DNA of 64,000 nt from positions 18,566-82,565 of the forward strand of contig CAZBAS010000002.1 of NCBI GenBank assembly GCA_964490395.1, written 5' to 3'. The stretch's first letter is position 1. Every line of letters begins with the position of its first letter. Shown here in pieces: positions 1,404 to 60,199 of the stretch. Both the position numbers and the translations under genes were made by a program. The notes beneath the pieces are model-generated. The model was not told where the DNA came from. It worked only from the letters and a program-made list of their open reading frames with translations, and ran no database searches. The stretch is from an uncultured Candidatus Saccharibacteria bacterium (GTDB taxonomy: Bacteria > Patescibacteriota > Doudnabacteria > UBA920).

Positions 1404-3110
1404 ATGTCACTCAAAACCATTATTCGTTCATACAAGCTCCTTACGCTCATAGTGAGCATAGCAGCTATAAGCGGCGCTACGTTCTACTGGACCAGCGCTC
1501 GCGCTACAGTAGACACTACTGCATTGCCCGACGGTACTGCAGGCCAAGCCTACTCATTTAAAATACAAGCAAGCGGCGGAAGCCAGCCCTATGAATTCGA
1601 AAAGTGGTACAACACGTACCCTGGCACTGAAATGACACTAAAGGCCGATGGGACTTTTTCTGGTACCCCAACTCAGGCAGGCACATGGGAACTGGGTATT
1701 CGCGTTACCGATGGGACCGGTCTTGGTGTATACAAAATACTTCCTTGGAAAGTAGTTAGCACCAGCACTACCACTGGCACCATCCGCATAGATGGTATAC
1801 AGGGATACAACCAGAACACTCAGCAATACAACAATACCGTTGCCACGCCAGATACCTATGTAGTGCTCTATGGCGCATTTGCGAGCAGCGGGAACCAGCT
1901 TGTTTCTACTGGCACCGTAAGTGGTACCATAGACTTTGAAAGCACTTCCCAAATAAACGTAAAACTTTCGAGTGGTACTGGTATTGCTACGTTTGCCATA
2001 CGCGCTAACGGCGTAGTTTCAAACAGCAAGAGCATAGGCGTTGGCACTGCTATCTCTACCACAACCAGCACACTTGCCATAAGTCCAGACACAACACTAG
2101 TTACTGGCGCTATCCCCGCTGGCGCGCCGCGTTACATTTTCGCTGCGTTCAAACTGCAAACAGGTAGCGCTCCCGTAACCATCACTTCCATTCGTGTAGT
2201 TTCTGAAACAAGCAGTACCAACCAGATCCGAAACATTATAGTTTCTAAAGATGGAAATGCAATTACCTCTAGTGTTGCCACCCTTACCAATTCCGATATA
2301 CCACTTTCCGCTGCGCTCACCATACCAGCAAATAGCACCGTCACTTTGGAAATAAGCGCTATAACCAATGACCAAGCAACTGGCCAGGTTCGTCTGGGCA
2401 TAGGCAGCATGCAGTTCAGCGGCACAGCACCTACCATAACCCCAGCCTTGCCTATCTACGGCCCTGTAGTGCCCATTGTAGCGGCTCCAACCCCTACCCC
2501 AGTCCCGGTCTCTGGTCAAATACTAGTTTCTACTAGTCCGGTAGCATGTACCGCTACCACCAGCACGGTATCTATAACAGTTACCGGTACAAATGGCACA
2601 CTCTATACCATTCGCCGCAACAACGAAACCTTTGCTACCATAACTGGCTCTGGCAGCGTGCAAGATACCATTTCTGTTGGCACTACAAAGAGCTACAGCT
2701 TGTTTGCAGGTAGCCAGCAAGTTGGTACTACTCAAACTATAATTGGTACACGCCAAGCTGGTTGTACTACCACCACTGGCGACCGATACGTACGTGTAGC
2801 AGGCGACCCAACTGTATACTGGGTTACCCCATGGAATGCTAAAATGCCAATTCTATCTGCGGAAGTATTTTACTCATACGGCAGTAAGTGGGAACAAGTG
2901 CAAATTATATCCCAGGAAGCGCTCGATGATATAGACGATGTAGAGTATATTAAACTCAAAGGCAACGCACGGGTATACAAAATAGACGGCGCAGTAAAAC
3001 GCTACGTCTCCCCTGCTGCAGCGCAGCGCCTAAACATAGACCCTGCAAAAGTAGTCACCGTAAACGAAACAGAGTTCTACTCCTACCGCACTGGCAAGAG
3101 CATACAATAG
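1404..3110 (+). CDS. Secreted or cell-surface protein with Ig-like/beta-rich repeats and a Pro/Thr linker.
   Basis: N-terminal signal peptide/TM (LLTLIVSIAAISGATF), Thr/Ser/Gly-rich beta-repeat composition and a PTPTPVPV linker. AT-rich promoter region upstream (1200-1400); hairpin terminator at 3149..3175. Confidence 0.6.
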   Translation: MSLKTIIRSYKLLTLIVSIAAISGATFYWTSARATVDTTALPDGTAGQAYSFKIQASGGSQPYEFEKWYNTYPGTEMTLKADGTFSGTPTQAGTWELGIRVTDGTGLGVYKILPWKVVSTSTTTGTIRIDGIQGYNQNTQQYNNTVATPDTYVVLYGAFASSGNQLVSTGTVSGTIDFESTSQINVKLSSGTGIATFAIRANGVVSNSKSIGVGTAISTTTSTLAISPDTTLVTGAIPAGAPRYIFAAFKLQTGSAPVTITSIRVVSETSSTNQIRNIIVSKDGNAITSSVATLTNSDIPLSAALTIPANSTVTLEISAITNDQATGQVRLGIGSMQFSGTAPTITPALPIYGPVVPIVAAPTPTPVPVSGQILVSTSPVACTATTSTVSITVTGTNGTLYTIRRNNETFATITGSGSVQDTISVGTTKSYSLFAGSQQVGTTQTIIGTRQAGCTTTTGDRYVRVAGDPTVYWVTPWNAKMPILSAEVFYSYGSKWEQVQIISQEALDDIDDVEYIKLKGNARVYKIDGAVKRYVSPAAAQRLNIDPAKVVTVNETEFYSYRTGKSIQ

Positions 3111-3148
3111 AAAAGAAGTTGCTAACTGCTAGTTATTAGCTTCTAGCA

Positions 3149-3175
3149 TAAAGCCCCGCAAGGGGCTTTTTTATT
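3149..3175 (+). terminator. Rho-independent terminator.
   Basis: AAAGCCCC GCAA GGGGCTTTTTTATT: an 8-bp GC-rich stem with a tetraloop followed by a T-run. Confidence 0.75.
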
Positions 3176-3221
3176 ATAGAAACATGCACGTTGTTTCTGT
3201 TGAGAATACCAATGTTAACCC

Positions 3222-3333
3222 TCTGTCATCCTCGCGTATGCGGGGATCCATATCGGCCCATTAGCCGATAACAGGATTGTTGTTTCGTTGCCCCCGGTGC
3301 GGGGGTGAATTCCCGCCTTCGCGGGAATGACAG
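3222..3333. repeat. About 110-nt GC-rich palindromic repeat element (MITE/REP-like) with terminal inverted repeats CTGTCAT...ATGACAG; copy 1.
   Basis: Contains the hairpins CTGTCATCCTCGCG-TAT-GCGGGGATCC, CCCCCGG-TG-CGGGGG and GAATTCCCGC-CTTC-GCGGGAATGACAG. The outer arms are mutually complementary and it is homologous to 30885..31035 in inverted orientation. It produces the classic spurious '...IPAKAGIH...' ORFs (3215..3403). Confidence 0.6.
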
Positions 3334-3588
3334 ACAAAAAATTGATATTAGAAATAAATGCGTTGACTCGCATGGCTAGAAACCGTAAACTGCATAAGCT
3401 CAAAAATCAAAATACGAAAGGAGGGCCTTACATGAAAAGCCCTGACAATTTCTTTGTAAGATTAGTTTGTATATTATTTATACTCCTAATCATCAAACTT
3501 CTATGGTTCGGCAACTAACTCCCCCACGCCGAACTTTTTTATTTGGGCAAAATGAAAACGGTAGTTGGCAGTCCTACCGCATATTGAA

Positions 3589-3729
3589 CTACAATGACCC
3601 GCATATGGCCAGTGCTGTTAGGACAAGTGCCGTGACAGCGGCACCAACTCCCAGCAGCACTATCATCTTACCCCCAGTACCACTTTGCCAGAGGGACACT
3701 TCGTCATTATTGTTGTTATGGTAACCCAT
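3589..3729 (-). CDS. Possible small membrane protein (46 aa, MGYHNNNNDEVSLWQSGTGGKMIVLLGVGAAVTALVLTALAICGSL).
   Basis: Strong SD (GAGGGGG) 4 nt upstream of the ATG and a single C-terminal TM helix. It lies immediately downstream of another small TM ORF (3741..3926) whose TGA overlaps the region. Confidence 0.3.
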   Translation of the reverse strand: MGYHNNNNDEVSLWQSGTGGKMIVLLGVGAAVTALVLTALAICGSL

Positions 3730-3740
3730 TCTTCCCCCTC

Positions 3741-3926
3741 TCATCTTTTGAAAGTAGCGACCGCAAAGATCACTACAAGTTGAACGAATAAGAATGCCAC
3801 GACTAGCAAACTCGCACATAGCGCAATTTGCTGGCCATCGGACAATCTCATACATCGCCGCATTAGGAGGTAGCAGCTCCTCAATATGCGACGTCCTTCC
3901 AAATTCGCATACAAGCCACCTCCCAA
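3741..3926 (-). CDS. Possible small membrane protein (TTG/ATG start uncertain).
   Basis: C-terminal hydrophobic helix (ALCASLLVVAFLFVQLVVIFAVATF) and a tandem arrangement with 3589..3729. No homology recognised. Confidence 0.2.
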   Translation of the reverse strand: MGGGLYANLEGRRILRSCYLLMRRCMRLSDGQQIALCASLLVVAFLFVQLVVIFAVATFKR

Positions 3927-4096
3927 TTGTTATGCTACACTTTGATAACCAAAAGCCGGATTGCGCATGCGTTCCGGCTTTTGTTTGATGTAAGTATAGC
4001 TATTAAATACCACTACAGCAACTAACCATGGGCACCATTGTAGCCGCTACAATGGTGCCCATGGTTTATGGGTTTAATGGCCTTACTCACGCCTCA

Positions 4097-4540
4097 TTAC
4101 TCATCCCTCACGCCTGTATTTAGCACCGCCTCTAGCGCCACCAACGCGTGGTCTGCGTCTAGGCCTATAATTTGTGATACAACCTGGGTGCGAATATTTG
4201 CATCAAAACTTTCAGCGCTGACTTTTTTAAGATGTTCAACAATGGCCTTGTCTATAACATGCGCTCGAATACTTACCCGGCGGAGCTCATCCCGCACAGC
4301 TTCCATATAGCGCGCCTCACCCCTTACAACAGTTTGCAAACCCATAGCGCACCCGTGCTCATCTAGTAAAGGTTTCTGTAACTGCGCATCGCGCTCCTGA
4401 AGCTGCTTCATAACCCACTCAGCTACATCTGGCACTTCATGAATAGGAACAATGGATAGCCCCAGCTCACCCAAAACAACATACCCCAGCAGCTGCCACT
4501 CTGTATTAAAAATTCCAATAACTTCTTCTTTCATAGCCAT
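4097..4540 (-). CDS. Hypothetical cytoplasmic protein.
   Basis: 147 aa from ATG (MAMKEEVIGIF...) with GGGAGGGG upstream. No family recognised. The palindromic motif AATACTAGACAGTATTCTAGTA lies about 90 nt upstream. Confidence 0.45.
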   Translation of the reverse strand: MAMKEEVIGIFNTEWQLLGYVVLGELGLSIVPIHEVPDVAEWVMKQLQERDAQLQKPLLDEHGCAMGLQTVVRGEARYMEAVRDELRRVSIRAHVIDKAIVEHLKKVSAESFDANIRTQVVSQIIGLDADHALVALEAVLNTGVRDE

Positions 4541-4687
4541 AACTATACCCAAATTTCCCCTCCCGCACAACCATCAAATATCATAATTAAATAAACCGTG
4601 AAGCATTTTATACCGCCCATTCCTTACCGTAATACTAGACAGTATTCTAGTAGAAGAAAAGAGATGTATTCTCTTAAATATAAAAAA

Positions 4688-4770
4688 ACACGGGCCTACA
4701 CATGCAGTCTGAGTCTATATCGTTGTAAGTGATATAGTCCCATACTACACGGTAGGCCCGCTGCTTATCG
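4688..4770 (-). terminator. Rho-independent terminator of the deacetylase gene.
   Basis: On the - strand: CGGGCCTAC...(nested GACTATATC/GATATAGAC)...GTAGGCCCG followed by TGTTTTTTTA. Confidence 0.6.
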
Positions 4771-4777
4771 CAAAAAG

Positions 4778-6313
4778 TTAGTTGCCCGTACGGCGCGGAG
4801 GACCGCCCCGATCACCGATAGGAGGCCTCCCAGGATTTACCTGCCGCCCCGGAACCGGATGTTGGAAGCCCTGAAACATATCTGGCCTGTCTCCATACTC
4901 TGACATGAACTCGTCATTGTTTAAGACCGGCAAACCCCAAAATTCGATATCGCGCATCAGGAACTCGAAATTCTGTTCTGATGTGCTATAGGGGTCACTT
5001 GGGTCGTCACAAATATTGTGTATGAGCCACGCAGTACACACCTTGTCCTGCGCGCTCCACATATTCATCATGTGGATTTTGTCCGGAGTCATATCACGTG
5101 TCAATGCACGAACTTTGATGCGCCACGGATGTGTACCGCGGCCATTTCCCCCATCGCTGGCATCTCTTTGAGTGTCAAAGAAGCAACCAGCAAGATAGTG
5201 CAAAAACGCGTTCAAATTACCCGACCCAAAAGGAAACGCCATATGATAGATTGGCGGCCCATCTGGCAGATTACAGTTCAGGATTTTGTCCGAGGTATCG
5301 AACTCCCAATTGATCCGTGCTATAGGATCTTTGAGATCTGGCAGCGGGATGTCATACTTGTGCGACACCCATGTGGCTGCTGCGAGCCACTCCGCATATT
5401 CGGCCTGCGTTTCAGATCCATTCAAAATCTTAGACATATCGGGGTGGGTAACCGTGTGGCTTCCAATATTCCCGCCGTCATTATAGATCTCGGCCAAGTC
5501 CGCCCACGAAATTCCACCGGGTTCGTTTGGGTTGCTAACCCAATCAATCCGGGGGAAAACATTCGCACGCCATTTACGAGGCTTCATGTACTTCCGGTAC
5601 ATGACGGGCTGTGAAGCATAACCATCATCGAAATGAATGGCGACACTTCCGCGCACGCGTTGATACTCCTTTACACTAACAGATTGAACTTCAACCGTTC
5701 CCACTGCGCGGATAAGACCAATAAAGATGTGGGCCTGCACGACTGGCTGCGGCACCTGAAATGCTTCCAGATGCACACTGATCTCGTGCCAGTCTGTGCT
5801 CTGAGTCGGATAGTTTGGATAATCAACAATCCATGCAGTCGTACCATCGGCCAAATCTAGTTTGACCTGCATGGTCAGACCCAAGTGCGGACTGTTTGGC
5901 CCATTTGGAGCGTCAGCCGGCGTGTCTTTGACCGGTCCAATTGATCGAACCGAGGCAGTAAAAGTCGTTGGGACGCCGATAGGCTGGTTGAGCACCAGGG
6001 TCTCATATGTTCCGGCGATATACAACTGACTATCAGCCTTAATCGAGAGAACACTTCCGCCGCCCGGCTTAGCTATTCTTGTGTAGCCGCCCCAGCCACC
6101 CCACGTTGGGAAGCCGTGTTGCCAATTCTGCGCCTCGGCACTGCTTGCGCCTGCCTGGGAAAAGTTGCCGTTAATGATCCGCTCGACGCCAGGTAAATAG
6201 CCTGGTGTCGGCTGTTGCTGCGCTGCTACCTTGTGTTGCATGCTGGGCGCGACCATACATGCGAGAAAAAGCAATGCCAGCGTGGCAAAGCCTACTAACT
6301 TTCTACGAGACAT
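4778..6313 (-). CDS. Secreted polysaccharide deacetylase (NodB/CE4 domain) with an N-terminal carbohydrate-binding-like domain.
   Basis: AGGAGG 6 nt upstream of the ATG (MSRRKLVGFATLALLFLAC... signal peptide). CE4 motifs HFDDGY and HTVTHPDM. The N-terminal domain resembles the CBM of 8955..10193 and 6662..7387. Confidence 0.7.
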   Translation of the reverse strand: MSRRKLVGFATLALLFLACMVAPSMQHKVAAQQQPTPGYLPGVERIINGNFSQAGASSAEAQNWQHGFPTWGGWGGYTRIAKPGGGSVLSIKADSQLYIAGTYETLVLNQPIGVPTTFTASVRSIGPVKDTPADAPNGPNSPHLGLTMQVKLDLADGTTAWIVDYPNYPTQSTDWHEISVHLEAFQVPQPVVQAHIFIGLIRAVGTVEVQSVSVKEYQRVRGSVAIHFDDGYASQPVMYRKYMKPRKWRANVFPRIDWVSNPNEPGGISWADLAEIYNDGGNIGSHTVTHPDMSKILNGSETQAEYAEWLAAATWVSHKYDIPLPDLKDPIARINWEFDTSDKILNCNLPDGPPIYHMAFPFGSGNLNAFLHYLAGCFFDTQRDASDGGNGRGTHPWRIKVRALTRDMTPDKIHMMNMWSAQDKVCTAWLIHNICDDPSDPYSTSEQNFEFLMRDIEFWGLPVLNNDEFMSEYGDRPDMFQGFQHPVPGRQVNPGRPPIGDRGGPPRRTGN

Positions 6314-6615
6314 AATTGTCCTCCTGCGTAAACATTGATGTAACAATTCTGCATTTTCCGCTCGATTCGAATCGAGATTTGCATGCTGTAAGCGGAAATG
6401 CCAGGGAGTTACGGTAACCCTGATCTGACTTCAGAAAATTTTGATCATTCCTGAAAAGACCAATAACTATAACATAAAATGCCATTTTTGGGAATACCCA
6501 GCATATATATTATTCCCCATTCTTAAGGGGTGTTTAGCTTCATTTTTACTTGACCATCAGCTCTCTTCCGGAATACTAGACAGTATTCTAGTAAAAATAT
6601 TGCCAATAGATAAAC

Positions 6616-8954: not shown

Positions 8955-10193
8955 CTATCGGGCAACACCAAACTGCTGAAGGGCGTCGCTGTAGGTTTTT
9001 ACTGGTACACCACTTGCAGAAATGGACTGAAGAATTTGCTTAAACTGTGCCACTGGAGTGTGATAAATATCGTCACCAGTATTTGCTATATCGTGGAATA
9101 CAAACACTTCCCAGCGCTTTTGTGCCTGCGCCTCAGCGAGCCAGTTCTGAATGTCTGCCATGGTAGTCTGGGTAGTTATACCACGTACCTTTACGTCGTA
9201 TGGGAATGTTCCTTGTGGGTTACTCCCCTGTTCAAAGTTACGCATGGTCGTGTAATACTTCGCACCCTCACCCAAAATGTATGCGTTATACGCACCATAC
9301 GGAGTAGCAAACAGTTTTGGGCTCCACTTTGCTAGCGCAGCTTTGGAAGCTTCTAGCTCGGTTACAGCTTGAGCAGGAGTAATAGTGGTCATGTCTGTGT
9401 GGTTTACACTGTGAGACGCAATTTCCCAACCACTGGTGTAGAGTGCTTGTATTTGAGTACTCGTCATGTAGGTGGTGTCTTGGTCAGTGTAGCTGGTAAT
9501 AATACCGCTCACACCCTTGAAGCCATACACATCCATAGCTGGTTTTGCAGCGGTGAATGTGTTCGCTGGACCATCGTCGAACATAAGCGTTACTGCTGCT
9601 TGTGTTGGCTCAAAATCCGCTACAGTAACATCGTCAAACCAAGCAGTACCGCTGGCGTTGATAAGTGCAGGTACTACAAAAATATAATCTATAGGTCCGT
9701 TTATAAAAGAAACGCTTCCCGTGTTAAACCCAACCCAGCGCCAATCAAACGTACCAGAGTTTGCGATGGTGTTCCAGTACAGCGTACGGCCATCCATCAT
9801 GTGAATTTCTGCGTAGATGGACGCGCCAAAATATGAACCATTTACCATGTTCACATTGCTGCCCTTTACGTAGGCGCCAATGAACACTGGTTTCTGTACA
9901 GACTGGTGAAAGTCTACGCGCTGGTATCCACCAGCCATGGCATTCTGGGTAGCGTTCTGGAGCCGCATACTAAACTGACCAGTGTGGCCACCCGCAACAC
10001 GAGTATAGCCTCCGCCAAAATCCTGCCAGTCATATGCCTTGTCAGCACCGTTGCCAACCTGCTCAAATCCGCCATCGTTTAAGGGGTCAAGCATAGCAGC
10101 CTGGGCTGTGCGTGAAAACGAAGCAAGCGACAGCACCAGAAGGGCTACAACGAGCAAAACCTGCAATTTCTTTATCATGTTTTTAGAGCTCAT
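8955..10193 (-). CDS. Secreted polysaccharide deacetylase (CE4/NodB) with an N-terminal CBM.
   Basis: Signal peptide (LQVLLVVALLVLSLASFS); CE4 motifs MFDDGP and HSVNHTDM; N-terminal CBM paralogous to 6662..7387. Confidence 0.75.
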   Translation of the reverse strand: MSSKNMIKKLQVLLVVALLVLSLASFSRTAQAAMLDPLNDGGFEQVGNGADKAYDWQDFGGGYTRVAGGHTGQFSMRLQNATQNAMAGGYQRVDFHQSVQKPVFIGAYVKGSNVNMVNGSYFGASIYAEIHMMDGRTLYWNTIANSGTFDWRWVGFNTGSVSFINGPIDYIFVVPALINASGTAWFDDVTVADFEPTQAAVTLMFDDGPANTFTAAKPAMDVYGFKGVSGIITSYTDQDTTYMTSTQIQALYTSGWEIASHSVNHTDMTTITPAQAVTELEASKAALAKWSPKLFATPYGAYNAYILGEGAKYYTTMRNFEQGSNPQGTFPYDVKVRGITTQTTMADIQNWLAEAQAQKRWEVFVFHDIANTGDDIYHTPVAQFKQILQSISASGVPVKTYSDALQQFGVAR

Positions 10194-14004: not shown

Positions 14005-15500
<1,496 letters not shown>

Positions 15501-18658: not shown

Positions 18659-18747
18659 AAAACTTTTAAAAAGAATGCCTAATTCCTAATTTCTAATATC
18701 TAATTTCTGAATTCCTAACTTAGAAATTAGGAATTAGAGCTTAGACA
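18659..18747. repeat. AT-rich inverted repeat (CCTAAT/TTCTAAT units) at the atpF/atpH junction.
   Basis: GCCTAATTCCTAATTTCTAATATCTAATTTCTGAATTCCTAACTTAGAAATTAGGAATTAGAGCTTAGACATTAGCGC. Confidence 0.65.
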
Positions 18748-19323
18748 TTAGCGCTTGAGCGCGGCCAGCGCTTCTTCTGCCATCTGCTTATCCTTTGTAT
18801 CATCCAATTTCTCTCGCAATATCTTTTCTGTGGCTTGTATAACAATGTCTGCAAGTTGCCCCTTTGCTTCCTGAATCATGCGCACCTGTTCCTGCTCCAG
18901 CTTTTCTTTTCCATCTAGCACCACTGCTGCTTGTTCTTGCTTGGCTTTAGCCAGGAGTTCACTGCGCACTGCTTCCGCTTCTGTTTTTGCCTGTGTAACT
19001 ATATCTGCTGCTTCGGAACGCGCTTTGCCCATTTCCACTGCTTTCCACTTTTCAAATTCAAGCTTGTCTTTAGTAATGCTCTCGGCAGTTTTGAGCGAGT
19101 CTTCTATTTTCTGAGTTCGCTTCTGCAATGCTTTTGTGACTGGTGTGAACACCCACTTCCACAAGATGAACAATACAATAGAGAAGTTAACAAGCTGCGC
19201 TAAAAAGAGTTTCCAGCTTATACCAAACATACCTGCCAAATCCTGAGAAGGTTCAGCAGTAGTGGCGGCAGTGGCTACTTCTTCAGCTGCGTGAGCTATA
19301 TGTATAAAAAAATCCAAAACCAT
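18748..19323 (-). CDS. atpF: Fo ATP synthase subunit b.
   Basis: Single N-terminal TM (LFLAQLVNFSIVLFILWKWVF) followed by a long charged helical region rich in E/K/A; operon position. Confidence 0.75.
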   Translation of the reverse strand: MVLDFFIHIAHAAEEVATAATTAEPSQDLAGMFGISWKLFLAQLVNFSIVLFILWKWVFTPVTKALQKRTQKIEDSLKTAESITKDKLEFEKWKAVEMGKARSEAADIVTQAKTEAEAVRSELLAKAKQEQAAVVLDGKEKLEQEQVRMIQEAKGQLADIVIQATEKILREKLDDTKDKQMAEEALAALKR

Positions 19324-19419
19324 AACAGGGAAATTTCTAATTACTAATTCCTAATTTCTAATGCAATACGATTCTGACATTAGAAATTAGATATTAGGCA
19401 TTAGGAATTTTATTCTGTC
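19324..19419. repeat. AT-rich inverted repeat (TTCTAAT units) at the atpE/atpF junction, plus a small hairpin TTATTCTG-TCTTA-CAGAATAA.
   Basis: AATTTCTAATTACTAATTCCTAATTTCTAATG-CAATACGATTCTGA-CATTAGAAATTAGATATTAGGCATTAGGAATT. Confidence 0.65.
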
Positions 19420-38091: not shown

Positions 38092-38130
38092 AAAGCCCAC
38101 GCAGCATTCTCTGCGTGGGCTTTCTCATTT
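38092..38130 (+). terminator. Rho-independent terminator.
   Basis: AAAGCCCACGCAG-CATTCTC-CTGCGTGGGCTTT followed by a T-rich stretch. Confidence 0.75.
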
Positions 38131-38229: not shown

Positions 38230-38271
38230 AAATTACGGTTTCACTCACAAATGTGAGTGAAACCGTAATTT
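38230..38271. promoter_or_regulatory. 42-nt perfect palindrome abutting the stop codon of the PaaX-like gene.
   Basis: AAATTACGGTTTCACTCACA-AA-TGTGAGTGAAACCGTAATTT; paired with the near-identical palindrome at 38966..39001. Confidence 0.7.
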
Positions 38272-38934
38272 CTATAATAACTTCTTTTGTTTAAAAAATC
38301 GAAGAAGTCTTTCTTTATCCTGAACGTCTAATCTTATAATTTCCATTACAGTGACGAAGTGTGCTACATGATACTGGATAGCAATGTGCCCCAACTCTTT
38401 TCTGGGATCGAACGGATGGATCCATAATGTACGTTGCAAAGAATAGAATTGCAATTCACGCAGTTTGGCTCGAAGCATATCTGCGCCAGCTCGATATTCC
38501 CTCGTAGGTATGTCTGCAGCCACCAACCACCAGGTGCCAGCCCAATGCGCGGGTTTAGTAATTTGATAAATTCCCTTGTTCAAATCGCGGAGACGACCTT
38601 GCCCCTTCTCGGTCAAACGTGCAAGTAACTTGCCTCCTTTTTCTTCAATAATAATTTGTCCTGACTGTTTTAAGTAATATACCGCCCTTACTAACTTTTG
38701 TGCCTGCTCTGAATGTCGTAACGGTCTCTTGTATCTACGTCGCAAAAAAGGCGCTAAAACCTTAAGTGTATTCGGAGCTGTTAACAGCATCCCCACAGCA
38801 CCCGCCATTCCTGCAATGATCAAAACATTCATTGCCACAGTTTTAACGCGCTCAGAAGTAAGCAGGGCCTCAAGATTTTGCAGTGAATCTCCGGGGGCTT
38901 TTCGCACCTGCTTTGTTATAGGCATCCGAACCAT
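38272..38934 (-). CDS. PaaX-family-like winged-helix transcriptional regulator (short form, 220 aa), paralog 1.
   Basis: wHTH region (VRAVYYLKQSGQIIIEEKGGKLLARLTEKGQ) and a PaaX-type central domain (WAGTWWLVAADIPTRE...LRELQFYSLQRTLWIHPF; compare E. coli PaaX WDGKWLLLLSEGLD...GFGALAPSL, from memory). Similar to 44770..45294. Confidence 0.5.
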   Translation of the reverse strand: MVRMPITKQVRKAPGDSLQNLEALLTSERVKTVAMNVLIIAGMAGAVGMLLTAPNTLKVLAPFLRRRYKRPLRHSEQAQKLVRAVYYLKQSGQIIIEEKGGKLLARLTEKGQGRLRDLNKGIYQITKPAHWAGTWWLVAADIPTREYRAGADMLRAKLRELQFYSLQRTLWIHPFDPRKELGHIAIQYHVAHFVTVMEIIRLDVQDKERLLRFFKQKKLL

Positions 38935-38965
38935 AAGACGTTATCTTTTTATATTGTTGCTCAAT

Positions 38966-39001
38966 TTACGATTCCACTCACATTTGTGAGTGGAATCGTA
39001 A
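38966..39001. promoter_or_regulatory. 36-nt perfect palindrome 32 nt upstream of the PaaX-like start codon.
   Basis: TTACGATTCCACTCACA-TT-TGTGAGTGGAATCGTAA. It differs from 38230..38271 only by compensatory changes in both arms (G>A, T>C). Confidence 0.7.
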
Positions 39002-39059
39002 TAATTGTAAATTAGCGTGGTGAGACTTTTACCCACAGATACATGTGCCGATTTTCGAA

Positions 39060-39548
39060 TTATCGTGTAAGGGCAAGGATACTGTTACCAATTATAGGCT
39101 CGGCCGTAGGAGCAAACACCGTAATGCGGCCATTGGCGTCTTGGAATAGACGGTAGCCGGTGGTATAGGTGGTGCCGTTCCAACTCGTTCCGTTGCTCGG
39201 GTCTACTGGTAGTTCAGAAATGTATGACGGTACCAAACACGAACGCAGGTCTAGCTCGCCGGTGCCGTTACCAATAATACTTCCCGCTGTCCCGGTAGCC
39301 ACTGTGCCGGTTGGAAAGGTAATCCCAGCACAATTAAACTGCCCTTTATTCTCTGCTATGCGCTGGCCTACACTATTGAGCAGTGCGTTCAAATCGCTCG
39401 ACCGCTGCGTATTGCGCATATTTGCAAATTGCCGCGCCGGGTTAACAGCTATAAGTACTATCGCGGCAAGCGCCGCAAGCAAACCTATAGAGACCAAAAT
39501 TTCAATGAGCGTAAAACCATTTTGAGTAGAAACGTGAGAACTTTGCAT
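39060..39548 (-). CDS. Type IV major pilin (prepilin with N-terminal cleavage/methylation domain).
   Basis: Leader plus QNGFTLIEILVSIGLLAALAAIVLIA (class III signal with G-F-T-L-I-E) followed by a variable C-terminal domain containing Cys; 162 aa. Confidence 0.75.
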   Translation of the reverse strand: MQSSHVSTQNGFTLIEILVSIGLLAALAAIVLIAVNPARQFANMRNTQRSSDLNALLNSVGQRIAENKGQFNCAGITFPTGTVATGTAGSIIGNGTGELDLRSCLVPSYISELPVDPSNGTSWNGTTYTTGYRLFQDANGRITVFAPTAEPIIGNSILALTR

Positions 39549-39578
39549 ATACTTCGTTTTTTAATTTTAATTAGTTTT

Positions 39579-39616
39579 ATGTTCGCAATTTAAGCGGCCG
39601 CTTAAATTGCGAACAT
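39579..39616. promoter_or_regulatory. 38-nt perfect palindrome in the pilin promoter region.
   Basis: ATGTTCGCAATTTAAGC-GGCCGC-TTAAATTGCGAACAT, 31 nt upstream of the pilin ATG. It has the same GCGGCCGC centre as the palindrome at 45308..45349. Confidence 0.7.
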
Positions 39617-39644
39617 GAGGATGCGTTACGGGAAGATTCTGTAT

Positions 39645-40079
39645 TTAGGGAGGTTCTGACTCCATGGTTACGGTAAAATTTGCTTGATCCAAGTTCGCGA
39701 GAAGATTTGTCTCCGCGCCTACCACCGCAGCATGAGTGCGAACTTCCCACGTGCCGCCTGTATTTTGCACACTTACTATGTCGCATGAATTATCTTCTAC
39801 CGCTATCGAGCGTGCACTTGGGTACACAGAAGCTTTCAACTGTAGGACAGCCAGACGAACACAACTATCGGCAAGAGTATAGCTTTGTTCTTTTGCCCAG
39901 GCCTGCAGCGAGCTTTGTCCGCTATTCCACACAACGAGCGCATGGCTGGATATAAGCATGCTCACTATGGCCGACATAAGTATTACACAGATGAGTGCAA
40001 TATACCCTTCGTCAAAGTGAGTGCTATTTGGCTTAAGGGAAAAAGATGTGCCTATGTATATTTTCATTATCAACTCCAA
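39645..40079 (-). CDS. Putative minor pilin/pilus assembly protein (PilX-like N-terminal hydrophobic segment).
   Basis: N-terminal hydrophobic helix (YIALICVILMSAIVSMLISSHALVVW) in the pilus gene cluster. The prepilin motif is degenerate. Confidence 0.35.
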   Translation of the reverse strand: MELIMKIYIGTSFSLKPNSTHFDEGYIALICVILMSAIVSMLISSHALVVWNSGQSSLQAWAKEQSYTLADSCVRLAVLQLKASVYPSARSIAVEDNSCDIVSVQNTGGTWEVRTHAAVVGAETNLLANLDQANFTVTMESEPP

Positions 40080-40500
40080 TAGTAACTATTAATTCTCTAT
40101 TCGGTTCACTGTACGTAAACGCTGGCATTCCTTGCGTTAACTGAGTTAGGTGTGTGGGAAGCAAGTCTACCGCACCACTGCCTGCATACGAAAGGGTCAG
40201 CATAGTATGCTCTATGCGAATATTCACCGGAGAGCCAATTCCTATATGCACATTTGTAAATACAACGCCGTCAGGAGTGGTTACAATAGACTGTGCCCCC
40301 GTGCCGAGCCAGCGTAATTTTGCTATTACAAAATCCACATCCTCTTGCGTACGAATATCTGCGCTCGTCTTATCCATGTTTCCCATAAGGCCAAATAGTG
40401 CTGCCCACGAGCCCACACACAGAACCGACAACAGTCCAACATATACAATTATTTCTAGGAGCGTAAACCCGGTCGCACAGGGAGACCTCTTATGAATCAT
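40033..40500 (-). CDS. Type IV pilus pseudopilin (minor pilin).
   Basis: ATGFTLLEIIVYVGLLSVL prepilin N-terminal methylation motif; 155 aa. Confidence 0.65.
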   Translation of the reverse strand: MIHKRSPCATGFTLLEIIVYVGLLSVLCVGSWAALFGLMGNMDKTSADIRTQEDVDFVIAKLRWLGTGAQSIVTTPDGVVFTNVHIGIGSPVNIRIEHTMLTLSYAGSGAVDLLPTHLTQLTQGMPAFTYSEPNRELIVTIGVDNENIHRHIFFP

Positions 40501-40510
40501 GGATATATAC

Positions 40511-41932
40511 TTAGTTACTTATCAAAGATATGCCGCTGCCATGGGGCGCAAAAACCACATTGTCCTGATAGTCCACTCTTCCGCTATTTGCAATGATGTT
40601 TGACGTACTACACGAGGTAACAGTAGCTATTTCCGTAACCGAACATACCAAAAGTGGCGCAGTAGTATCGGAAGTAGTCATAATGAGTGTGGCGTTACTA
40701 ACTACAAAACCATTTACTACACTGCCAGACTTAAGCTTTGCGTTATACGAAGAGAGAAACACTGGGTGCTGGGGGTCAGTTACGGACAACGCAATCACTG
40801 TAGGCTCCCCTGTTACTTGCTGTCTTGCAATCCACATAATGTTTCCCGCGGCAAATAGCGCGGTTGCGCTACCACTCCCCTGGGCGTCGAACAAAGAAAA
40901 ATCTGTAATGTGTGTTGCATCGGTAACATTCAACACTTGCAGTTCTGAATTGTTTGCCGAAGATGCAATGTACGCCAGAAGCTTTAGACTGCCGCCCACA
41001 ACCTCTTCCCGCACAACTATGGTACGTACGCTATGGTTTACGGCCCTACTACCTAAAAAAACTGGGCTCAAAGGATTGCTTACATCAAATATATAAAACT
41101 CTGAGCCAGCAGTTTCATACGTGCCAATATAGGCGCGGTTTCGAAATACAAAAATACTTCTCCCTTCCGGAAAGGAGCCAGATGCGCTCGGCAAACTGCG
41201 TGAAGCAACCAGCACTGGATGGGCCGGAGTGGATACATCAACAACTTGAAATTGTAATGTACTACTATTCTGGACTGCATACGCATAGGACCCGGCAACA
41301 TCAACTGCAAATAAACCACTGCCTGTATGTAAACTAGAGAGTACCTGCAAAGAAGATGGAATGGTTGTGTCAATGACAAATAAATCTGCGTCCGCAGCTT
41401 GAGAACTTGTCCCCACCGCAACTGCCAGTCGTGCGGAATTTCTTTCCACCACATCAACACCATGTATTTGAAGTCTCGTGGGACCGAGTGGAACTGTGCC
41501 CACAATGTGTGCGCTACTCCAGCCTCCTACCAACCCCACCACTGGACAATCGTAGCCGCTCTCCTCCACCGACTGCGTACTCGTTACTGTAGTTGCTATC
41601 TCGGCAGAAGCAGGATGCGGCATGCTCCAGCCCACACGGGATACCGCTGTAGCCGTGCATAACGTGGACACATGGAGTGCCCTCTCCATGGTAAATGGCG
41701 CATGTGCCAATACCGCTGGCGGAACCCCTTGGAGCGGACCAGTATACGCGCGAACCCGCGCTGCATCACCGCTCAATATATCTCGTGCTTCAGTAGCCAA
41801 ATGTCTCGCCGCCACTGCATCTTGCAAACCAAACACCATTCGCGCAGATGCCGCAAGCACTGTTGCCATAACAGCTAAGGCCACCAGAAATTCAATGCTT
41901 AAACTACCATATTGTGACCCCATGTGTTTCAC
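40511..41932 (-). CDS. Large pseudopilin-like protein (473 aa) with a beta-rich C-terminal domain; candidate pilus tip/adhesin subunit.
   Basis: N-terminal GSLSIEFLVALAVMATVLAA (G...E at +5) prepilin-like helix followed by a long Ser/Thr/Val-rich domain. Confidence 0.45.
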   Translation of the reverse strand: MKHMGSQYGSLSIEFLVALAVMATVLAASARMVFGLQDAVAARHLATEARDILSGDAARVRAYTGPLQGVPPAVLAHAPFTMERALHVSTLCTATAVSRVGWSMPHPASAEIATTVTSTQSVEESGYDCPVVGLVGGWSSAHIVGTVPLGPTRLQIHGVDVVERNSARLAVAVGTSSQAADADLFVIDTTIPSSLQVLSSLHTGSGLFAVDVAGSYAYAVQNSSTLQFQVVDVSTPAHPVLVASRSLPSASGSFPEGRSIFVFRNRAYIGTYETAGSEFYIFDVSNPLSPVFLGSRAVNHSVRTIVVREEVVGGSLKLLAYIASSANNSELQVLNVTDATHITDFSLFDAQGSGSATALFAAGNIMWIARQQVTGEPTVIALSVTDPQHPVFLSSYNAKLKSGSVVNGFVVSNATLIMTTSDTTAPLLVCSVTEIATVTSCSTSNIIANSGRVDYQDNVVFAPHGSGISLISN

Positions 41933-42384
41933 TATTCTATTGCTCCTTCAGAATTTATATGAATGGATGTAGTGTGGCCATTGCTTTCCATAGTAACGGT
42001 TGTATCGGTGCTCCGAGCAGACAAGGGCGCAAATATCACCACTAGAGGCTCTGGCACATGGTTAACGGTACCGGAGAGCGTTGTTGTTTCATTTGTTGGT
42101 AACCCTTCTGTAAAAGTTTCTCCTTGGAAGAGTACATATTTTGTATCATCTATGTACACGCCATACCCGCCCTGACCAATGTGCGCGTACGCACGGCTCC
42201 GTGCCGCAAGCAGAAGTTCTGTAAGCATGTCTCGCTGCGAAATCAAACCCTCAGTGCGCACATAGCCTATGCCCATGGGTACGGTAGCAGCAAGAAGCAC
42301 CGCCAAGAGCCCTATGGCCAATAATATTTCTGCATAGGTAAAGCCCTGTGTTTTTTCAAAAATGAATCGCCTGCGTAATCCCAT
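41932..42384 (-). CDS. Type IV pilus pseudopilin (GspH/FimT-like).
   Basis: Leader MGLRRRFIFEKTQG followed by FTYAEILLAIGLLAVLLAATV. The ORF track start at 42414 is also possible. Confidence 0.6.
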   Translation of the reverse strand: MGLRRRFIFEKTQGFTYAEILLAIGLLAVLLAATVPMGIGYVRTEGLISQRDMLTELLLAARSRAYAHIGQGGYGVYIDDTKYVLFQGETFTEGLPTNETTTLSGTVNHVPEPLVVIFAPLSARSTDTTVTMESNGHTTSIHINSEGAIE

Positions 42385-43441
42385 ATATAGGTGTGATAAT
42401 GGCAATGGCAACAAAGCCCACTACAAGCCCCACCACCAGCAACAATGCAGGCTCAAACAGCACGGTTACTTTTTTGGTCAATTCTTCTGTTTCTTCTTGC
42501 AGCATAAGAGCGCAGTACGCAAGACTTTCTGTGAGCGTGCCCGCCTGTTCTCCTACCTGAAGTAATTGGGTTACGTGCAAAGGAAATAAAGCCGGATACC
42601 ATTGCAAGCTTGCGGCCAGCGACGCACCATCAAGTACCCGTTCATGCACCTTACTCAGTGCAGTACGATATACCATATGCTGCATGCTCTGCGCAGTCTT
42701 CTCTAAGGCGCGAGCGAGCGGTACTTCTGCCTTGAGTAAAACCGCCAAAGTTCGGCATATGTGCCAATTCTGATATTGGACAAGATACGACCGAATAATG
42801 GGTACTCGCAAAATAGCGCGATACCACAGAGTACGGGTTTTTTGAGCATGGGCTACCATATACACAGCTACCAAAGCCAAACCCAAGCAGAGCAGAAGTG
42901 CTATGAAATCTTTAGTCACCGTTGTGTATATACCAAGCAAGATGCGTGTTGTGAGTGGTAGCTTAAAATGAAGACTACTAAATATGGGCATTAGTTTTGG
43001 AAACACATAGAGGAGAAGAAGCAGTGCCACGGCGCACGCAATCACGAACACAAAGAGCGGGTAGACTAAGGCAGACCATATTTTTCTTCGCATTGTTTGC
43101 TGCTGGCCCAACTGTTCTGTTACATATCGTAAATGTTCAGGAAGCATGCCAGTTTGCTCCCCCACCTCTATAAGATGGAGTGTGAGAGGACTCACGACGT
43201 TTCCACAATCTGCGAGCCCTGCAGCAAGACTTCTACCACTACTCACCGCCCCCACCAAACTACCTATCACTTCCGCAACACCACCCTTGGCCTGCACCGA
43301 AAGTAAACGCAAAGATTCGAGCAAGGGCACTCCAGCAGTGACGAGTGTTGAAAGTCTTTTTATGAGTAAGAGTTGCTCTGTAACGGAAATGCGCATGGAA
43401 AACACCTCATTGCTTAATAATGTTTCAATCGGACAGTACAC
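42356..43441 (-). CDS. pilC: Type IV pilus/T2SS inner-membrane platform protein PilC (GspF family).
   Basis: Two GspF repeats with 3 TM segments; conserved ...LLESL..., ...GE..G.L and L...L motifs; 361 aa. Confidence 0.85.
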   Translation of the reverse strand: MYCPIETLLSNEVFSMRISVTEQLLLIKRLSTLVTAGVPLLESLRLLSVQAKGGVAEVIGSLVGAVSSGRSLAAGLADCGNVVSPLTLHLIEVGEQTGMLPEHLRYVTEQLGQQQTMRRKIWSALVYPLFVFVIACAVALLLLLYVFPKLMPIFSSLHFKLPLTTRILLGIYTTVTKDFIALLLCLGLALVAVYMVAHAQKTRTLWYRAILRVPIIRSYLVQYQNWHICRTLAVLLKAEVPLARALEKTAQSMQHMVYRTALSKVHERVLDGASLAASLQWYPALFPLHVTQLLQVGEQAGTLTESLAYCALMLQEETEELTKKVTVLFEPALLLVVGLVVGFVAIAIITPIYGITQAIHF

Positions 43442-44624
43442 GTATTATTTCCTCAGGGGTAGTAATTTGCGCACACATCTTTTCTGCTCCGTCTATTGCC
43501 ATGGCTCGCATACCCTCTCCTATAGCCTGACGAGTAATTTCAGAGGCAGGCACTCTCCGAAGAATGAGCCCTCGAATACTAGGCGTAACATGTAAAATTT
43601 CAAAAAGCGCCACCCTCCCTTTGTAGCCGCTACCCCGACACTCTACGCAGCCAACTGCTTTAACCCCTGTAACAACTTCTTTTTCCGGTATACACGACCG
43701 TACAATGGGTGGTAAATCACGGACTGCATACGAACAAAGTTCTTTGCACGCACTACACACGGTACGAACTAGTCGCTGGGCAATAATTACGCTCACGGTA
43801 GAACTCACGAGATATGGCTCAACCCCCAGATCGAGCAAACGCAACAAAGTAGTTGCGGCATCGTTGGTATGAATGGTCGAAAGTAGTAAGTGTCCGGTTA
43901 GCGCTGTGTTAGTGGAAAGACGAGCAGTTTCGCCATCGCGAATTTCCCCCACCATAATAATGTTAGGATCTTGTCTTAAAATACTCCGCAGACCAGTGGT
44001 AAACGTAAGGTTTGTTCGAGGGTTCACTTGAATCTGGCAAGTCCCAGCAATGGCATACTCTATTGGATCCTCAACTGTAATAACGGACACAGTGGCACGG
44101 TGCACCAGTTGCAACAGCGCATATAGTGTTGTGGTCTTACCGCTCCCCGTTGGTCCACTAGCCAAGATCATGCCATGGGGTTTATGCAGCACCAGTTCCA
44201 AGCGAAGTCTATCTGCCTCACTCATCCCAAGAGCCGTGAGCGTCTTAAATCCAAACTCTTGGCTGAGCAGTCTTAACACGGCTCGTTCACCATAATACGT
44301 AGGACTTATGGCAACACGTACATCAACAGGATGATGTGCAATAGAAATGCGAAAGCGGCCATCTTGGGCCGCTTGGTGTTCGTCTGTGCGTAGTTCAGAC
44401 AATACTTTTATTTTGCTAATGAGGGCAGGAAGGTGATGCACGGTCATGTGTACGACATCTTCCAACTCACCATCTATGCGGAACCGGATGCGAACGTCAT
44501 CAGCAGTAGGATCCACATGCACATCTGAGGCACGCATACTCATGGCCTGGTGCAATAGCGCATCAATGCCTTCTGTGACAGAGAAGTTTTGTGTATCTTC
44601 AAAAATTTCTTGCAATGACTTCAT
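43425..44624 (-). CDS. pilB: Type IV pilus assembly ATPase PilB (GspE family), short form (399 aa) lacking the long N-terminal domains of typical PilB/GspE.
   Basis: Walker A GPTGSGKTTT, Asp box, His box and tetracysteine motif (CSACKELC...CVECRGSGYKGR); overlaps pilC by 17 nt. Confidence 0.85.
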   Translation of the reverse strand: MKSLQEIFEDTQNFSVTEGIDALLHQAMSMRASDVHVDPTADDVRIRFRIDGELEDVVHMTVHHLPALISKIKVLSELRTDEHQAAQDGRFRISIAHHPVDVRVAISPTYYGERAVLRLLSQEFGFKTLTALGMSEADRLRLELVLHKPHGMILASGPTGSGKTTTLYALLQLVHRATVSVITVEDPIEYAIAGTCQIQVNPRTNLTFTTGLRSILRQDPNIIMVGEIRDGETARLSTNTALTGHLLLSTIHTNDAATTLLRLLDLGVEPYLVSSTVSVIIAQRLVRTVCSACKELCSYAVRDLPPIVRSCIPEKEVVTGVKAVGCVECRGSGYKGRVALFEILHVTPSIRGLILRRVPASEITRQAIGEGMRAMAIDGAEKMCAQITTPEEIIRVLSD

Positions 44625-44731
44625 AACATAGCACTTGGGCGCTCAAACTTTTCCTCACAATATCAAGCAGATGAAGAAAAAACAAAAAAGTTATCCACTT
44701 TTCTAGCGACCAAACACCTACGCTCAAACGA

Positions 44732-44771
44732 AAATACAACGTTTTTCGTGGCCACGAAAAACGTTGTATTT
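44732..44771. promoter_or_regulatory. 40-nt perfect palindrome overlapping the stop codon of the PaaX-like paralog 2.
   Basis: AAATACAACGTTTTTCGTGG|CCACGAAAAACGTTGTATTT. Confidence 0.7.
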
Positions 44772-45294
44772 AGAGATCAAAACGGTGGCGCAAATCTGCA
44801 TCATCGTCGAGCCGCTCAACGGTCAAAAGCCTTATGTACTGGAGTAAACCAGAGGTCTTTAGATACTCCATGGCAGCTGCATTAAACGCATACGGACCTA
44901 TATAAACACTAGCTTGTAGTTTTACAAACGATAGTTCACGCAAGTGATAAACCAAAAGCGAACGCAGGTGCGCTGCGGACTCTGGAATATCAAACACGAG
45001 CACCCTCCATTTTTTGTCCCACTGCCCAACTTGCACCACACCAAACGTGGAAAGCAGGATCCTTACTTTTCCTTGTCTGGTTAAAGTTATAAAGCGCTTA
45101 CCATCTTTATCTCGCCAGCGAATATAGCCTTTTTGGTATAAATAGTACACAGTCCGCTTTAGGTGCCCACTCGTAGTAAGCCCTTCGTGATAAACTTGCT
45201 GGATGCTTCTGCCTTTCATTCCAAATACTAAACACCGCGTATCATGCACGGCAGTCAGTATTTTGTGCGCAAGCTGCGCAGTCTCTGCATGCAT
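44770..45294 (-). CDS. PaaX-family-like winged-helix transcriptional regulator (short form, 174 aa), paralog 2.
   Basis: VYYLYQKGYIRWRDKDGKRFITLTRQGK wHTH and WDKKWRVLVFDIPE...LRELSFVKLQASVYIGPY central domain; paralogous to 38272..38934. Confidence 0.5.
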   Translation of the reverse strand: MHAETAQLAHKILTAVHDTRCLVFGMKGRSIQQVYHEGLTTSGHLKRTVYYLYQKGYIRWRDKDGKRFITLTRQGKVRILLSTFGVVQVGQWDKKWRVLVFDIPESAAHLRSLLVYHLRELSFVKLQASVYIGPYAFNAAAMEYLKTSGLLQYIRLLTVERLDDDADLRHRFDL

Positions 45295-45307
45295 ACTAAC
45301 CCTTTCT

Positions 45308-45349
45308 AAAATACCACGTTTTCTGCGGCCGCAGAAAACGTGGTATTTT
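45308..45349. promoter_or_regulatory. 42-nt perfect palindrome 14 nt upstream of the PaaX-like paralog 2 start codon.
   Basis: AAAATACCACGTTTTCTGCGG|CCGCAGAAAACGTGGTATTTT. It is related to 44732..44771 by compensatory substitutions in both arms. Confidence 0.7.
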
Positions 45350-48407: not shown

Positions 48408-48457
48408 ATATATTATAAAAAATACTAGACAGTATTAAAGTAAACTACATGCGTATA

Positions 48458-60120: not shown

Positions 60121-60199
60121 AAGCCGCCCGGGGGCGGAATGACCAAATTCCTAACGTCCAATTTCATTAGACATTAGGAATTGGAAATTGGATATTTTC

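Follow-up and report, generated by a model that had tools for sequence, protein, structure and literature searches.

The PaaX repressor of Escherichia coli recognizes an operator of the form TGATTC-N27-GAATCA and represses its own promoter, Px (PMC9493321). In the Patescibacteria, or candidate phyla radiation (CPR), which account for a large share of bacterial diversity, very few regulators have known DNA targets. We analyzed a 64-kb stretch of DNA (the window) from an uncultured Candidatus Saccharibacteria bacterium (contig CAZBAS010000002.1), in which two genes for PaaX-like proteins, each set between two long perfect palindromes, lie on either side of a type IV pilus locus. The initial annotation of this DNA had read the palindromes either as operators of a pilus regulatory circuit or as parts of cassettes resembling IS200/IS605-like elements. 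We find that the layout recurs across a large, undescribed protein family, and that the palindromes are most likely each protein's own binding sites rather than anything specific to the pilus.

The whole window was scanned exhaustively for palindromes and inverted repeats. The scan recovered all five perfect palindromes at the coordinates first given for them, and the two open reading frames (ORFs) are also as described; the positions behind the reported spacings were right, and three gaps, corrected in the list below, are each one nucleotide shorter than had been stated. The elements are as follows.

38230-38271: Pal1, palindrome with 20-bp arms and a 2-nt centre AA, abutting the paralog-1 stop codon; putative stop-proximal cognate site of paralog 1
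38272-38934, minus strand: paralog 1, 220 aa, a presumed winged-helix N-terminus plus a Cas2-like PaaX_M domain (PF20803, E = 1.3e-11), without PaaX_C
38966-39001: Pal2, palindrome with 17-bp arms and a 2-nt centre TT, 31 nt upstream of the paralog-1 start; putative start-proximal cognate site of paralog 1
39579-39616: Pal3, solo palindrome with 19-bp arms, no centre gap and an GCGGCCGC centre, 30 nt upstream of the pilin ATG
44732-44771: Pal4, palindrome with 20-bp arms, no centre gap and a TGGCCA centre, overlapping the paralog-2 stop by 2 nt; putative stop-proximal cognate site of paralog 2
44770-45294, minus strand: paralog 2, 174 aa, a predicted winged helix plus a Cas2-like PaaX_M domain (PF20803, E = 1.4e-16)
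45308-45349: Pal5, palindrome with 21-bp arms, no centre gap and an GCGGCCGC centre, 13 nt upstream of the paralog-2 start; putative start-proximal cognate site of paralog 2

Pal5 begins 1 nt past the stop of a NUDIX gene. All differences between Pal1 and Pal2 are mirrored in both arms, and the same holds within the other pair, as had been reported. Such repeats are not expected by chance: 100 first-order Markov simulations of the window produced 0 inverted repeats with a 13-bp arm and a loop of at most 2 nt, whereas the real sequence has 10 seeds of this kind. CGGCCG is neither avoided nor in excess as a restriction site might be (5 observed versus 6.1 expected).

PF20803 (PaaX_M) is the only Pfam family that matches either ORF, in both cases above its gathering score. 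The label PaaX-like holds for this central domain only: PF08223 (PaaX_C) matches neither paralog, both proteins ending directly after the Cas2-like domain; PF07848, the PaaX N-terminal domain, gives no match at E ≤ 0.1; and the scores against the PaaX equivalog TIGR02277 (37.7 bits for paralog 1, 17.0 bits for paralog 2) fall far below its cutoff of 264.55. In the AlphaFold2 model of paralog 2 (pLDDT, the predicted local distance difference test score, of 84), the N-terminal half is a helix plus a β-wing. Foldseek aligns the whole chain to PaaX 8a39, the best match (5.9e-5), and to 3kfw, while the N-terminal half matches winged helix-turn-helix (wHTH) proteins and the C-terminal half matches Cas2 5zyf and 5xvn. 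By sequence, the N-terminal region has weak matches to AspA and MarR wHTH domains, and PF09827 (Cas2) scores 13.9 bits, below its threshold of 23.8; some homologues do score for PF09827. Paralog 2 carries the Cas2-type motifs FDIPE and LQASV. The family alignment (A1) has invariant W92, W96, D102, I103, P104 and Q127 and the signature W..W....FDIP...LQ.SV, which corresponds to the Cas2 pattern of a β1 Asp and QxSV and is lost in E. coli PaaX (LLLSEGLD...LAPSL). We conclude that neither protein is a true PaaX; both are minimal PaaX-like proteins composed of a putative winged helix and a Cas2-like domain, without the effector-binding PaaX_C.

The family comprises 4,008 clusters (50% identity, E ≤ 1e-10) of proteins mostly 170-200 aa long, and all named matches are from Patescibacteria, with several per genome. 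A literature search found no paper that combines PaaX with Cas2 or that describes the family or its palindromes in Patescibacteria. Paralog 1 belongs to a subfamily of its own, of ~220-aa proteins, whose members share a 21-residue hydrophobic stretch near the N-terminus (AMNVLIIAGMAGAVGMLLTAP, residues ~33-55); it may anchor the protein in the membrane or may simply be helix 1 of the winged-helix domain.

The association between gene and palindrome was measured in 80 loci fetched by protein similarity together with the window (1.21 Mb, 86 family genes; loci are denoted by L numbers). Loop-less perfect palindromes with arms of at least 13 bp concentrate around family genes, 57 of 81 lying within 200 nt of one, a zone that makes up 6.5% of the sequence (binomial p = 9e-49); looped hairpins near family genes show no enrichment (10/106, p = 0.15). 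Inverted repeats inside the zone have a loop of 0 in 58 of 67 cases, and the 24 loop-less palindromes outside it amount to about one per 47 kb. A palindrome scoring at least 12 accompanies 41 of the 47 closest homologues, and 28 of the 47 have one on both sides. The upstream palindrome ends at a median of 21 nt before the start, and the downstream one begins at a median of +1 nt from the stop, often overlapping the last codons. Centres are mostly CGGCCG (52), then CGATCG (8) and TGGCCA (4), with CGGTCG-type centres in remoter members. The arms vary between genes, and the two sites of one gene resemble each other. In the paralog-1 subfamily, L083 and L085 have the same layout with CACAAATGTG or CGCAATTGCG centres, the paralog-1 orthologue in L085 carrying a CACAAATGTG-centred perfect palindrome 1 nt past its stop; L081 and L086 have no palindromes. 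The association of gene and palindrome in relatives, which the initial annotation had left as a question, is a family-wide trait.

A third identical or near-identical copy follows the next gene in some loci (L045, 997-1034 and 2518-2555; L168, 1074-1109 and 2535-2568), so that in L045 a GT2 glycosyltransferase gene is enclosed, and in L168 a homologous gene for 463 aa; L003 has copies at 9692, ~10536 and 10943. The bracket can thus enclose a neighbour too. Independent short-read contigs stop inside the downstream palindrome (L089, 8533-8558, and the 3′ end of L090). Perfect palindromes appear to break short-read assemblies, and their frequency in metagenome-assembled genomes is therefore probably underestimated.

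To describe the site itself, 27 gene-bracketing pairs were aligned from the dyad, and identity was taken position by position between the two arms of a site (arm-vs-arm) and between the upstream and downstream sites of a gene (up-vs-down).

Positions 1-4, start of the core: arm-vs-arm identity 0.96-1.00; up-vs-down identity 0.93-0.96
Positions 10-11, A/T-rich spacer (~90% A/T): arm-vs-arm 0.89-0.96; up-vs-down 0.57-0.61
Positions 12-16, distal block: arm-vs-arm 0.91-0.96; up-vs-down 0.80-0.93
Positions ~20 onward: both at background

Arm-vs-arm identity is at least 0.87 at all positions 1-16. The up-vs-down profile therefore resolves a two-part site, core and distal block, and the overall plan is a CG-NN-CG core that is conserved, followed by a spacer rich in A/T and, at 12-18 bp from the dyad, a distal block that is specific to the gene. 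The span is close to that of the E. coli PaaX box. Degenerate sites (L005, L046, L047, L029, L004 and the miaA site of L214) keep the core and the distal block on both arms while the spacer is asymmetric. This argues for position-specific reading by a protein rather than a pairing requirement, and as a sequence pattern it points to binding by a protein dimer rather than to hairpin pairing. The symmetry also extends to the central bases, although in a hairpin these would be unpaired loop, and so suggests a symmetric dimer on duplex DNA. Among arm mismatches, those compatible with G:U pairing on the sense strand are not in excess. In a Mantel test, the core correlates with the Cas2-like domain at rho 0.50, a value confounded by phylogeny.

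The arms of a site evolve together. In 960 comparisons there are 20 arm-arm mismatches versus 161 up-down differences, and the spacers of perfect sites are mirrored within each site even though they are unlike at the two ends of a gene. The orthologous paralog-2 locus was compared in four genomes, represented by the window, L088 (87% identical), L091 (60%) and L001/L089 (65% and 61%). Across orthologues at 60-87% identity, position, core and the up- and down-specific distal blocks are kept and every substitution is mirrored; Pal4 is identical at 40/40 positions in L088 and has mirrored substitutions in L091 and L001, and the distinction between ATACCAC in the up site and ATACAAC in the down site is kept in the window and L091. 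L089 has one unmirrored A/G variant. Because the up and down blocks stay distinct, the arms of one site evolve in concert and the two sites do not homogenize each other. Template switching homogenizes and extends inverted-repeat arms (PMC7202029, PMC8794818, PMC13100816), and hairpin-templated switching would be the simplest cause of the symmetry seen here. The suggestion of templated maintenance, made for the window alone, is borne out family-wide by these counts and by the two-part profile. In L088 (95-175), the Pal5 orthologue contains a 39-nt insertion exactly at the dyad, with GCGATCGC at one junction and GCGGCCGC kept at the other; this contig has 1.1x coverage, and the insertion may be an artefact.

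The explanation that we favor, and to which we give about an even chance of being right, is that a minimal PaaX-like dimer has a pair of operators bracketing its own gene, their symmetry being maintained by template switching. The protein would bind duplex DNA as a symmetric dimer, its Cas2-like domain dimerizing, on a 36-42-bp dyad. The CG-rich core of this dyad would lie on the two-fold axis, separated by A/T-rich sequence from a distal block, specific to the paralog, at 12-18 bp. Of the two cognate copies that would bracket the protein's own gene, the start-proximal one, ~20 nt before the ATG, would serve autorepression. The stop-proximal one, overlapping or abutting the stop and usually stronger, may act as an auxiliary operator or a roadblock, aiding occupancy of the first site and limiting transcription running out of or into the unit. 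The whole would form a self-contained, self-limiting module set between housekeeping genes, in the window apparently inserted between NUDIX and pilB (paralog 2) and between the pilin gene and a terminator (paralog 1). Exact mirror symmetry, including at positions that the protein evidently does not read, would be kept by hairpin-templated correction of one arm from the other. This account builds on the association of gene and palindrome, two-part conservation, symmetry through the centre and persistence in orthologues with mirrored substitutions, all observed directly, and on the PaaX/Cas2-like fold; binding by the adjacent protein, the function of the sites in repression or as roadblocks and the mechanism that keeps them symmetric are what we infer from them. 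It retains the general part of the first reading in the initial annotation, since operators of wHTH dimers are the best-supported mechanism for sites that are two-part, symmetric to the dyad, paralog-specific and of PaaX-box span.

Several observations weigh against the operator pair. Adjacency, and that alone, points to the neighboring protein as the binder of the flanking palindromes. A scan for sigma-70-type promoters found none overlapping the palindromes. Within the 64 kb, each paralog's sites are its own gene flanks and no regulated target is seen: further paralog-1, paralog-2 or Pal3 sites are limited to chance-level matches with 2-3 mismatches, the Pal2 half-site has no other copy in the window, and a regulator controlling only itself is unsatisfying. 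Significant covariation of the distal block with the predicted recognition helix was not detected (Mantel rho 0.06), and DNA looping between the two sites gains no support from their centre-to-centre distances of 557-849 bp, which lack helical phasing (R 0.08, p 0.8). Downstream neighbors are convergent in 13/35 cases and the sites persist there, which means that an operator for the following gene cannot be all that the stop-proximal site is. The family also keeps the Cas2 active-site-like Asp that true PaaX has lost, and a pure DNA binder would not need that residue.

Palindromes away from family genes also weigh against it. A protein-blind, DNA-first metagenome search for the core TTTT[GC]ACGGCCGT[GC]AAAA with perfect arms of at least 14 bp returned 46 sites, of which only ~12 adjoin a family gene; the remainder lie upstream of or between genes such as LeuRS, IleRS, DnaK and MreB. 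A 57-nt gap between same-strand genes in L142, the downstream one ABC-transporter-like by motif only, consists largely of a 44-bp palindrome, which includes a possible ribosome-binding stretch. CGGCCG-centred perfect palindromes also stand in frame inside MiaA, UvrC, RecG and TsaD-like genes (L111, 2886-2921; L213, 6161-6198; L212, 510-529; L151, 5180-5213; L166, 3286-3319; L149, 9089-9122), where the translated peptide is of the form x[HRDN]-G-R-[EQ]-x. In MiaA, many orthologues from Patescibacteria have the site in one and the same loop, but its arms differ between genomes and range from degenerate to 19 bp. Solo and in-frame palindromes resemble dispersed selfish palindromic elements, which counts against operators; they may also be further operators expanded by template switching, and roadblock-type operator sites inside genes are known. 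One arm type, (C)GTAACAC-TTTTT-CACGG, recurs on a single 250-kb contig (L126, 8444-8497, and L161, 4148-4189) and in L098, L112 and L170 of one metagenome; its sites are unlinked, with LeuRS downstream in L126, MreB downstream in L112, and ArgRS and IleRS on the two sides in L170, and they make up a small regulon or else a repeat family of small size.

The main rival to the operator pair, unlikely in our judgment, takes its model from repetitive extragenic palindromic (REP) elements and the REP-associated tyrosine transposases (RAYT). The palindromes would be small duplicative or selfish elements and the wHTH-Cas2-like protein a domesticated, vertically inherited processing enzyme that cuts or nicks the CG-NN-CG dyad, with the gene flanked by its own cognate elements, as a RAYT is, and the solo palindromes as non-autonomous copies. 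Bracketing by cognate palindromes with a specificity for each paralog fits this scheme, and so do the Cas2 FDIP Asp and QxSV kept by the family and lost in E. coli PaaX, together with the homologues that score for PF09827; yet Pfam and NCBIfam match no HUH, tyrosine, serine or DDE recombinase-type family, and we know of no transposition or integration activity of Cas2 alone. Same-core solo palindromes in tight operon junctions (L142) speak for it, but loop-less solo copies, at about one per 47 kb, are roughly as numerous as the gene-flanking ones and not 10-100 times more so. The in-frame palindromes in MiaA, UvrC, RecG and TsaD are reminiscent of Rickettsia palindromic elements, although the miaA site is ancient and positionally fixed. 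The GTAACAC-TTTTT-CACGG arms at several loci of one metagenome, twice on one contig, also count in its favor, whereas arms in general are mostly unique rather than families of identical copies. The varied contexts of paralog-1 relatives in related genomes and the 39-nt insertion exactly at the upstream-site dyad in L088 are further points for this rival; against it stand stable position and synteny across orthologues 60-87% identical, degenerate sites that keep core and distal block instead of decaying uniformly, and the absence of relatives on viral contigs. The solo palindromes, the retained Cas2 motifs and the restriction of each paralog's sites within 64 kb to its own flanks keep this rival alive. 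Its fullest form, quite unlikely in our estimation, makes the wHTH-Cas2-like proteins more than repressors, namely active site-specific DNA enzymes that cut or nick the dyad and create, maintain and occasionally spread perfect palindromes, in-frame ones included. If true, this would be a Cas2-fold-based counterpart of REP/RAYT in Patescibacteria, and no Cas2-like domain would before have been shown to act on DNA by itself outside CRISPR.

The second reading in the initial annotation, that of IS200/IS605-like cassettes, is not supported as stated: Pfam and NCBIfam give no HUH TnpA or TnpB match, there are no viral relatives, synteny is conserved, the window has no extra copies of either paralog's palindrome, and the symmetry continues across the centre, more than recognition of a hairpin would call for. 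A phage or mobile origin is ruled against by the lack of relatives in viral contigs. A defence system was rejected, as PADLOC gives weak Cas2 matches only. A CRISPR link finds no support: the 64-kb window contains no repeat array and the neighbors examined at other loci are housekeeping genes (no search aimed at cas1 was made).

Weaker than the enzyme-based rival is the idea that the palindromes belong to the pilus. The initial annotation called the pilus gene set complete; the genes identified at the locus, with a candidate promoter, are as follows.

39060-39548, minus strand: major pilin-like gene with a class III signal peptide, N_methyl (PF07963, E = 2.8e-6)
within 39645-44624, minus strand: pseudopilins, N_methyl
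40511-41932, minus strand: LVIVD protein (LVIVD match)
42356-43441, minus strand: pilC (T2SSF, E = 4.6e-46)
43425-44624, minus strand: pilB (T2SSE, E = 1.5e-115)
44657-44698, minus strand: candidate pilB promoter region, an GTGGATAA box (44691-44698) plus an extended -10-like TTGATATTGT (44657-44666)

The TTGATATTGT element (TTGnTATnGT) lies 32 nt upstream of the pilB ATG and downstream of Pal4. Both it and the GTGGATAA box are invariant columns in the four-genome alignment (A3), and the region is a predicted pilB promoter with a possible upstream factor site. A pilus circuit would consist of two paralogs and three operator types, paralog 2 controlling pilB-pilC via Pal4 and one paralog controlling the pilin via Pal3; we regard it as very unlikely. 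One point in its favor is gene order: NUDIX-Pal-paralog 2-Pal-pilB-pilC-...-pilin is kept in four genomes (the window, L001, L091 and, as far as the contigs reach, L088/L089), and paralog 2 is therefore a stable neighbor of the pilus operon in this lineage. The Pal4 dyad, however, is ~100 nt upstream of the conserved pilB -10-like element. The two-regulator bracket is seen only in the window genome and is absent from the orthologous loci L001 and L091; paralog 1 beside the pilin is unique to this genome, its relatives lying between UvrD-like and HhH-GPD genes or in other contexts. An empty site for paralog 1 was considered and rejected, the UvrD/HhH-GPD and TP_methylase/FBP_C neighbors of its relatives not being in the window. 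Pal3 and Pal5 do have the GCGGCCGC centre in common, as first noted, and Pal3 is of the same site class, but its distal block, TTGCGAAC, matches neither paralog. A CGGCC-centred palindrome, the imperfect Pal3 orthologue with halves TTCACATTCTTAACGG and CCATTAAGAATGTGAA, stands ~26 nt upstream of the L001 pilin, whereas L091 has no palindrome there.

Across the family, a pilus gene lies within 6 kb in only 4/84 cases, which rules out pilus association as a family trait; the usual neighbors are unrelated housekeeping genes (Na+/H+ exchanger-x-CysRS, HisRS, ComEC, Mur ligase, FtsA, EF-G). The pilus part of the first reading is thus not supported, because Pal3 fits neither paralog, no further sites occur in the 64 kb, paralog 1 is in place here only, and the family at large adjoins housekeeping genes. 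The pilus locus is probably not under a special two-regulator circuit.

An effect at the RNA level, with the transcribed palindromes forming 17-21-bp perfect hairpins that flank the mRNA as RNase III sites, stabilizers or factor-independent terminators and with no need for the protein, is highly improbable. All five palindromes are placed where transcription through closely spaced genes on one strand would cover them, their predicted DNA hairpins are very stable (-16.5 to -20.1 kcal/mol; Pal1 has ΔG -19.6 kcal/mol, z = -10.6), the stems are near the length of a minimal RNase III substrate, and some palindromes include a possible ribosome-binding stretch (L142); but the four central bases, the would-be loop, are symmetric too (loop 0 in 58/67), the sense strand shows no G:U-type tolerance bias, the two sites of one gene share sequence and not structure alone with a core conserved family-wide, degenerate sites lose spacer pairing and keep core and distal blocks, and sites persist where the downstream gene is convergent. 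Intrinsic or bidirectional terminators (a G+C-rich stem, a 3-8-nt loop and a U/T tract), which the initial annotation had named as a deflating alternative, were rejected, the consensus scan calling 0/5 palindromes and none having a U-tract. Ordinary hairpins of terminator type elsewhere in the window have arms of 10-13 bp and loops of 3-8 nt, and a canonical terminator stands at 38092-38123, 106 nt beyond Pal1. Rfam has no family match at the palindromes or in 3000-4800.

The scan also turned up a sixth long perfect palindrome, previously unreported, at 4024-4066 (AACCATGGGCACCATTGTAGC-C-GCTACAATGGTGCCCATGGTT, 21-bp arms, 1-nt centre). It lies 30 nt past the stop of a 157-aa ORF (4097-4570, minus strand; no Pfam or NCBIfam match) and borders ~1 kb (3111-4096) without a convincing ORF or Rfam match; it adjoins no PaaX_M gene, and its centre is not CGGCCG. 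Elsewhere in the window, a 29-nt repeat, CCGTAATACTAGACAGTATTCTAGTAGAA, holding the inverted repeat AATACT-AGAC-AGTATT, occurs at 4627-4655, 6568-6596 and 48417-48445, each copy upstream of a minus-strand gene start, and may be a promoter or operator motif common to these genes. Four intergenic places (15418-15497, 18680-18749, 19331-19409 and 60152-60196) contain clusters of 7-nt units that are degenerate versions of TTAGAAATTAGGAATTAGA.

Although less exotic than first proposed, the finding is of real interest for the biology of Patescibacteria. Each member of the family appears to carry a cognate site on both sides of its gene, so the specificity of hundreds of proteins could be read from sequence, and other targets could be searched for genome-wide from the flanking sites. 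The family is also a natural experiment in the concerted evolution of palindrome arms, and its retained Cas2 motifs raise the question of a catalytic role.

Set beside known systems, the sites share with Rickettsia palindromic elements an in-frame position in conserved housekeeping genes (miaA, uvrC, recG, tsaD) that is kept across orthologues; they are shorter (34-44 bp versus ~100-150 bp), have a conserved 6-8-bp core with variable arms and no repeated consensus, and are associated with a protein family. As with REP/RAYT (TnpA-REP), a gene that is present once and passed on vertically lies between palindromes cognate to it, the element sequence differs for each gene family, and similar intergenic palindromes occur elsewhere. 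Unlike that system, the family has no HUH/Y1 match, its palindromes are perfect, loop-less and centre-symmetric (duplex-type), the copy number is very low in the loci analyzed and the arms are mostly unique. The C-terminal half resembles Cas2/VapD-type ferredoxin-fold nucleases by fold and weakly by sequence, including the β1 FDIP Asp and QxSV. It differs in its fusion to a wHTH domain, in a PF09827 score of 13.9 versus 23.8 bits and in the form of the repeats, which is a long perfect palindrome at each end of the gene instead of an array; the window contains no CRISPR array.

The layout also has parallels among operators. In lac O1/O2/O3, gal OE/OI and deo, a promoter-proximal site has a cognate partner at a distance of hundreds of bp, which can fall within the coding region or past it, and the distal site is often the stronger one; the family differs in placing its second site at the regulator's own stop codon, without helical phasing. 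PaaX of E. coli and Pseudomonas has the order of winged helix and Cas2-like central domain (PF20803) that is predicted for the family, provides the best structural match (8a39), and binds as a dimer to widely spaced inverted half-sites spanning ~39 bp, through which it autorepresses, as the family's proteins would. The family lacks the PaaX_C domain that binds the effector phenylacetyl-CoA, lacks a PF07848 match, falls below the TIGR02277 cutoff and has no paa genes nearby, and it keeps the FDIP/QxSV motifs that PaaX has lost. Its sites also depart from the PaaX box in their palindromic spacer, in their CG-NN-CG core and in bracketing the gene at both ends, and each genome contains many paralogs, each with a private site.

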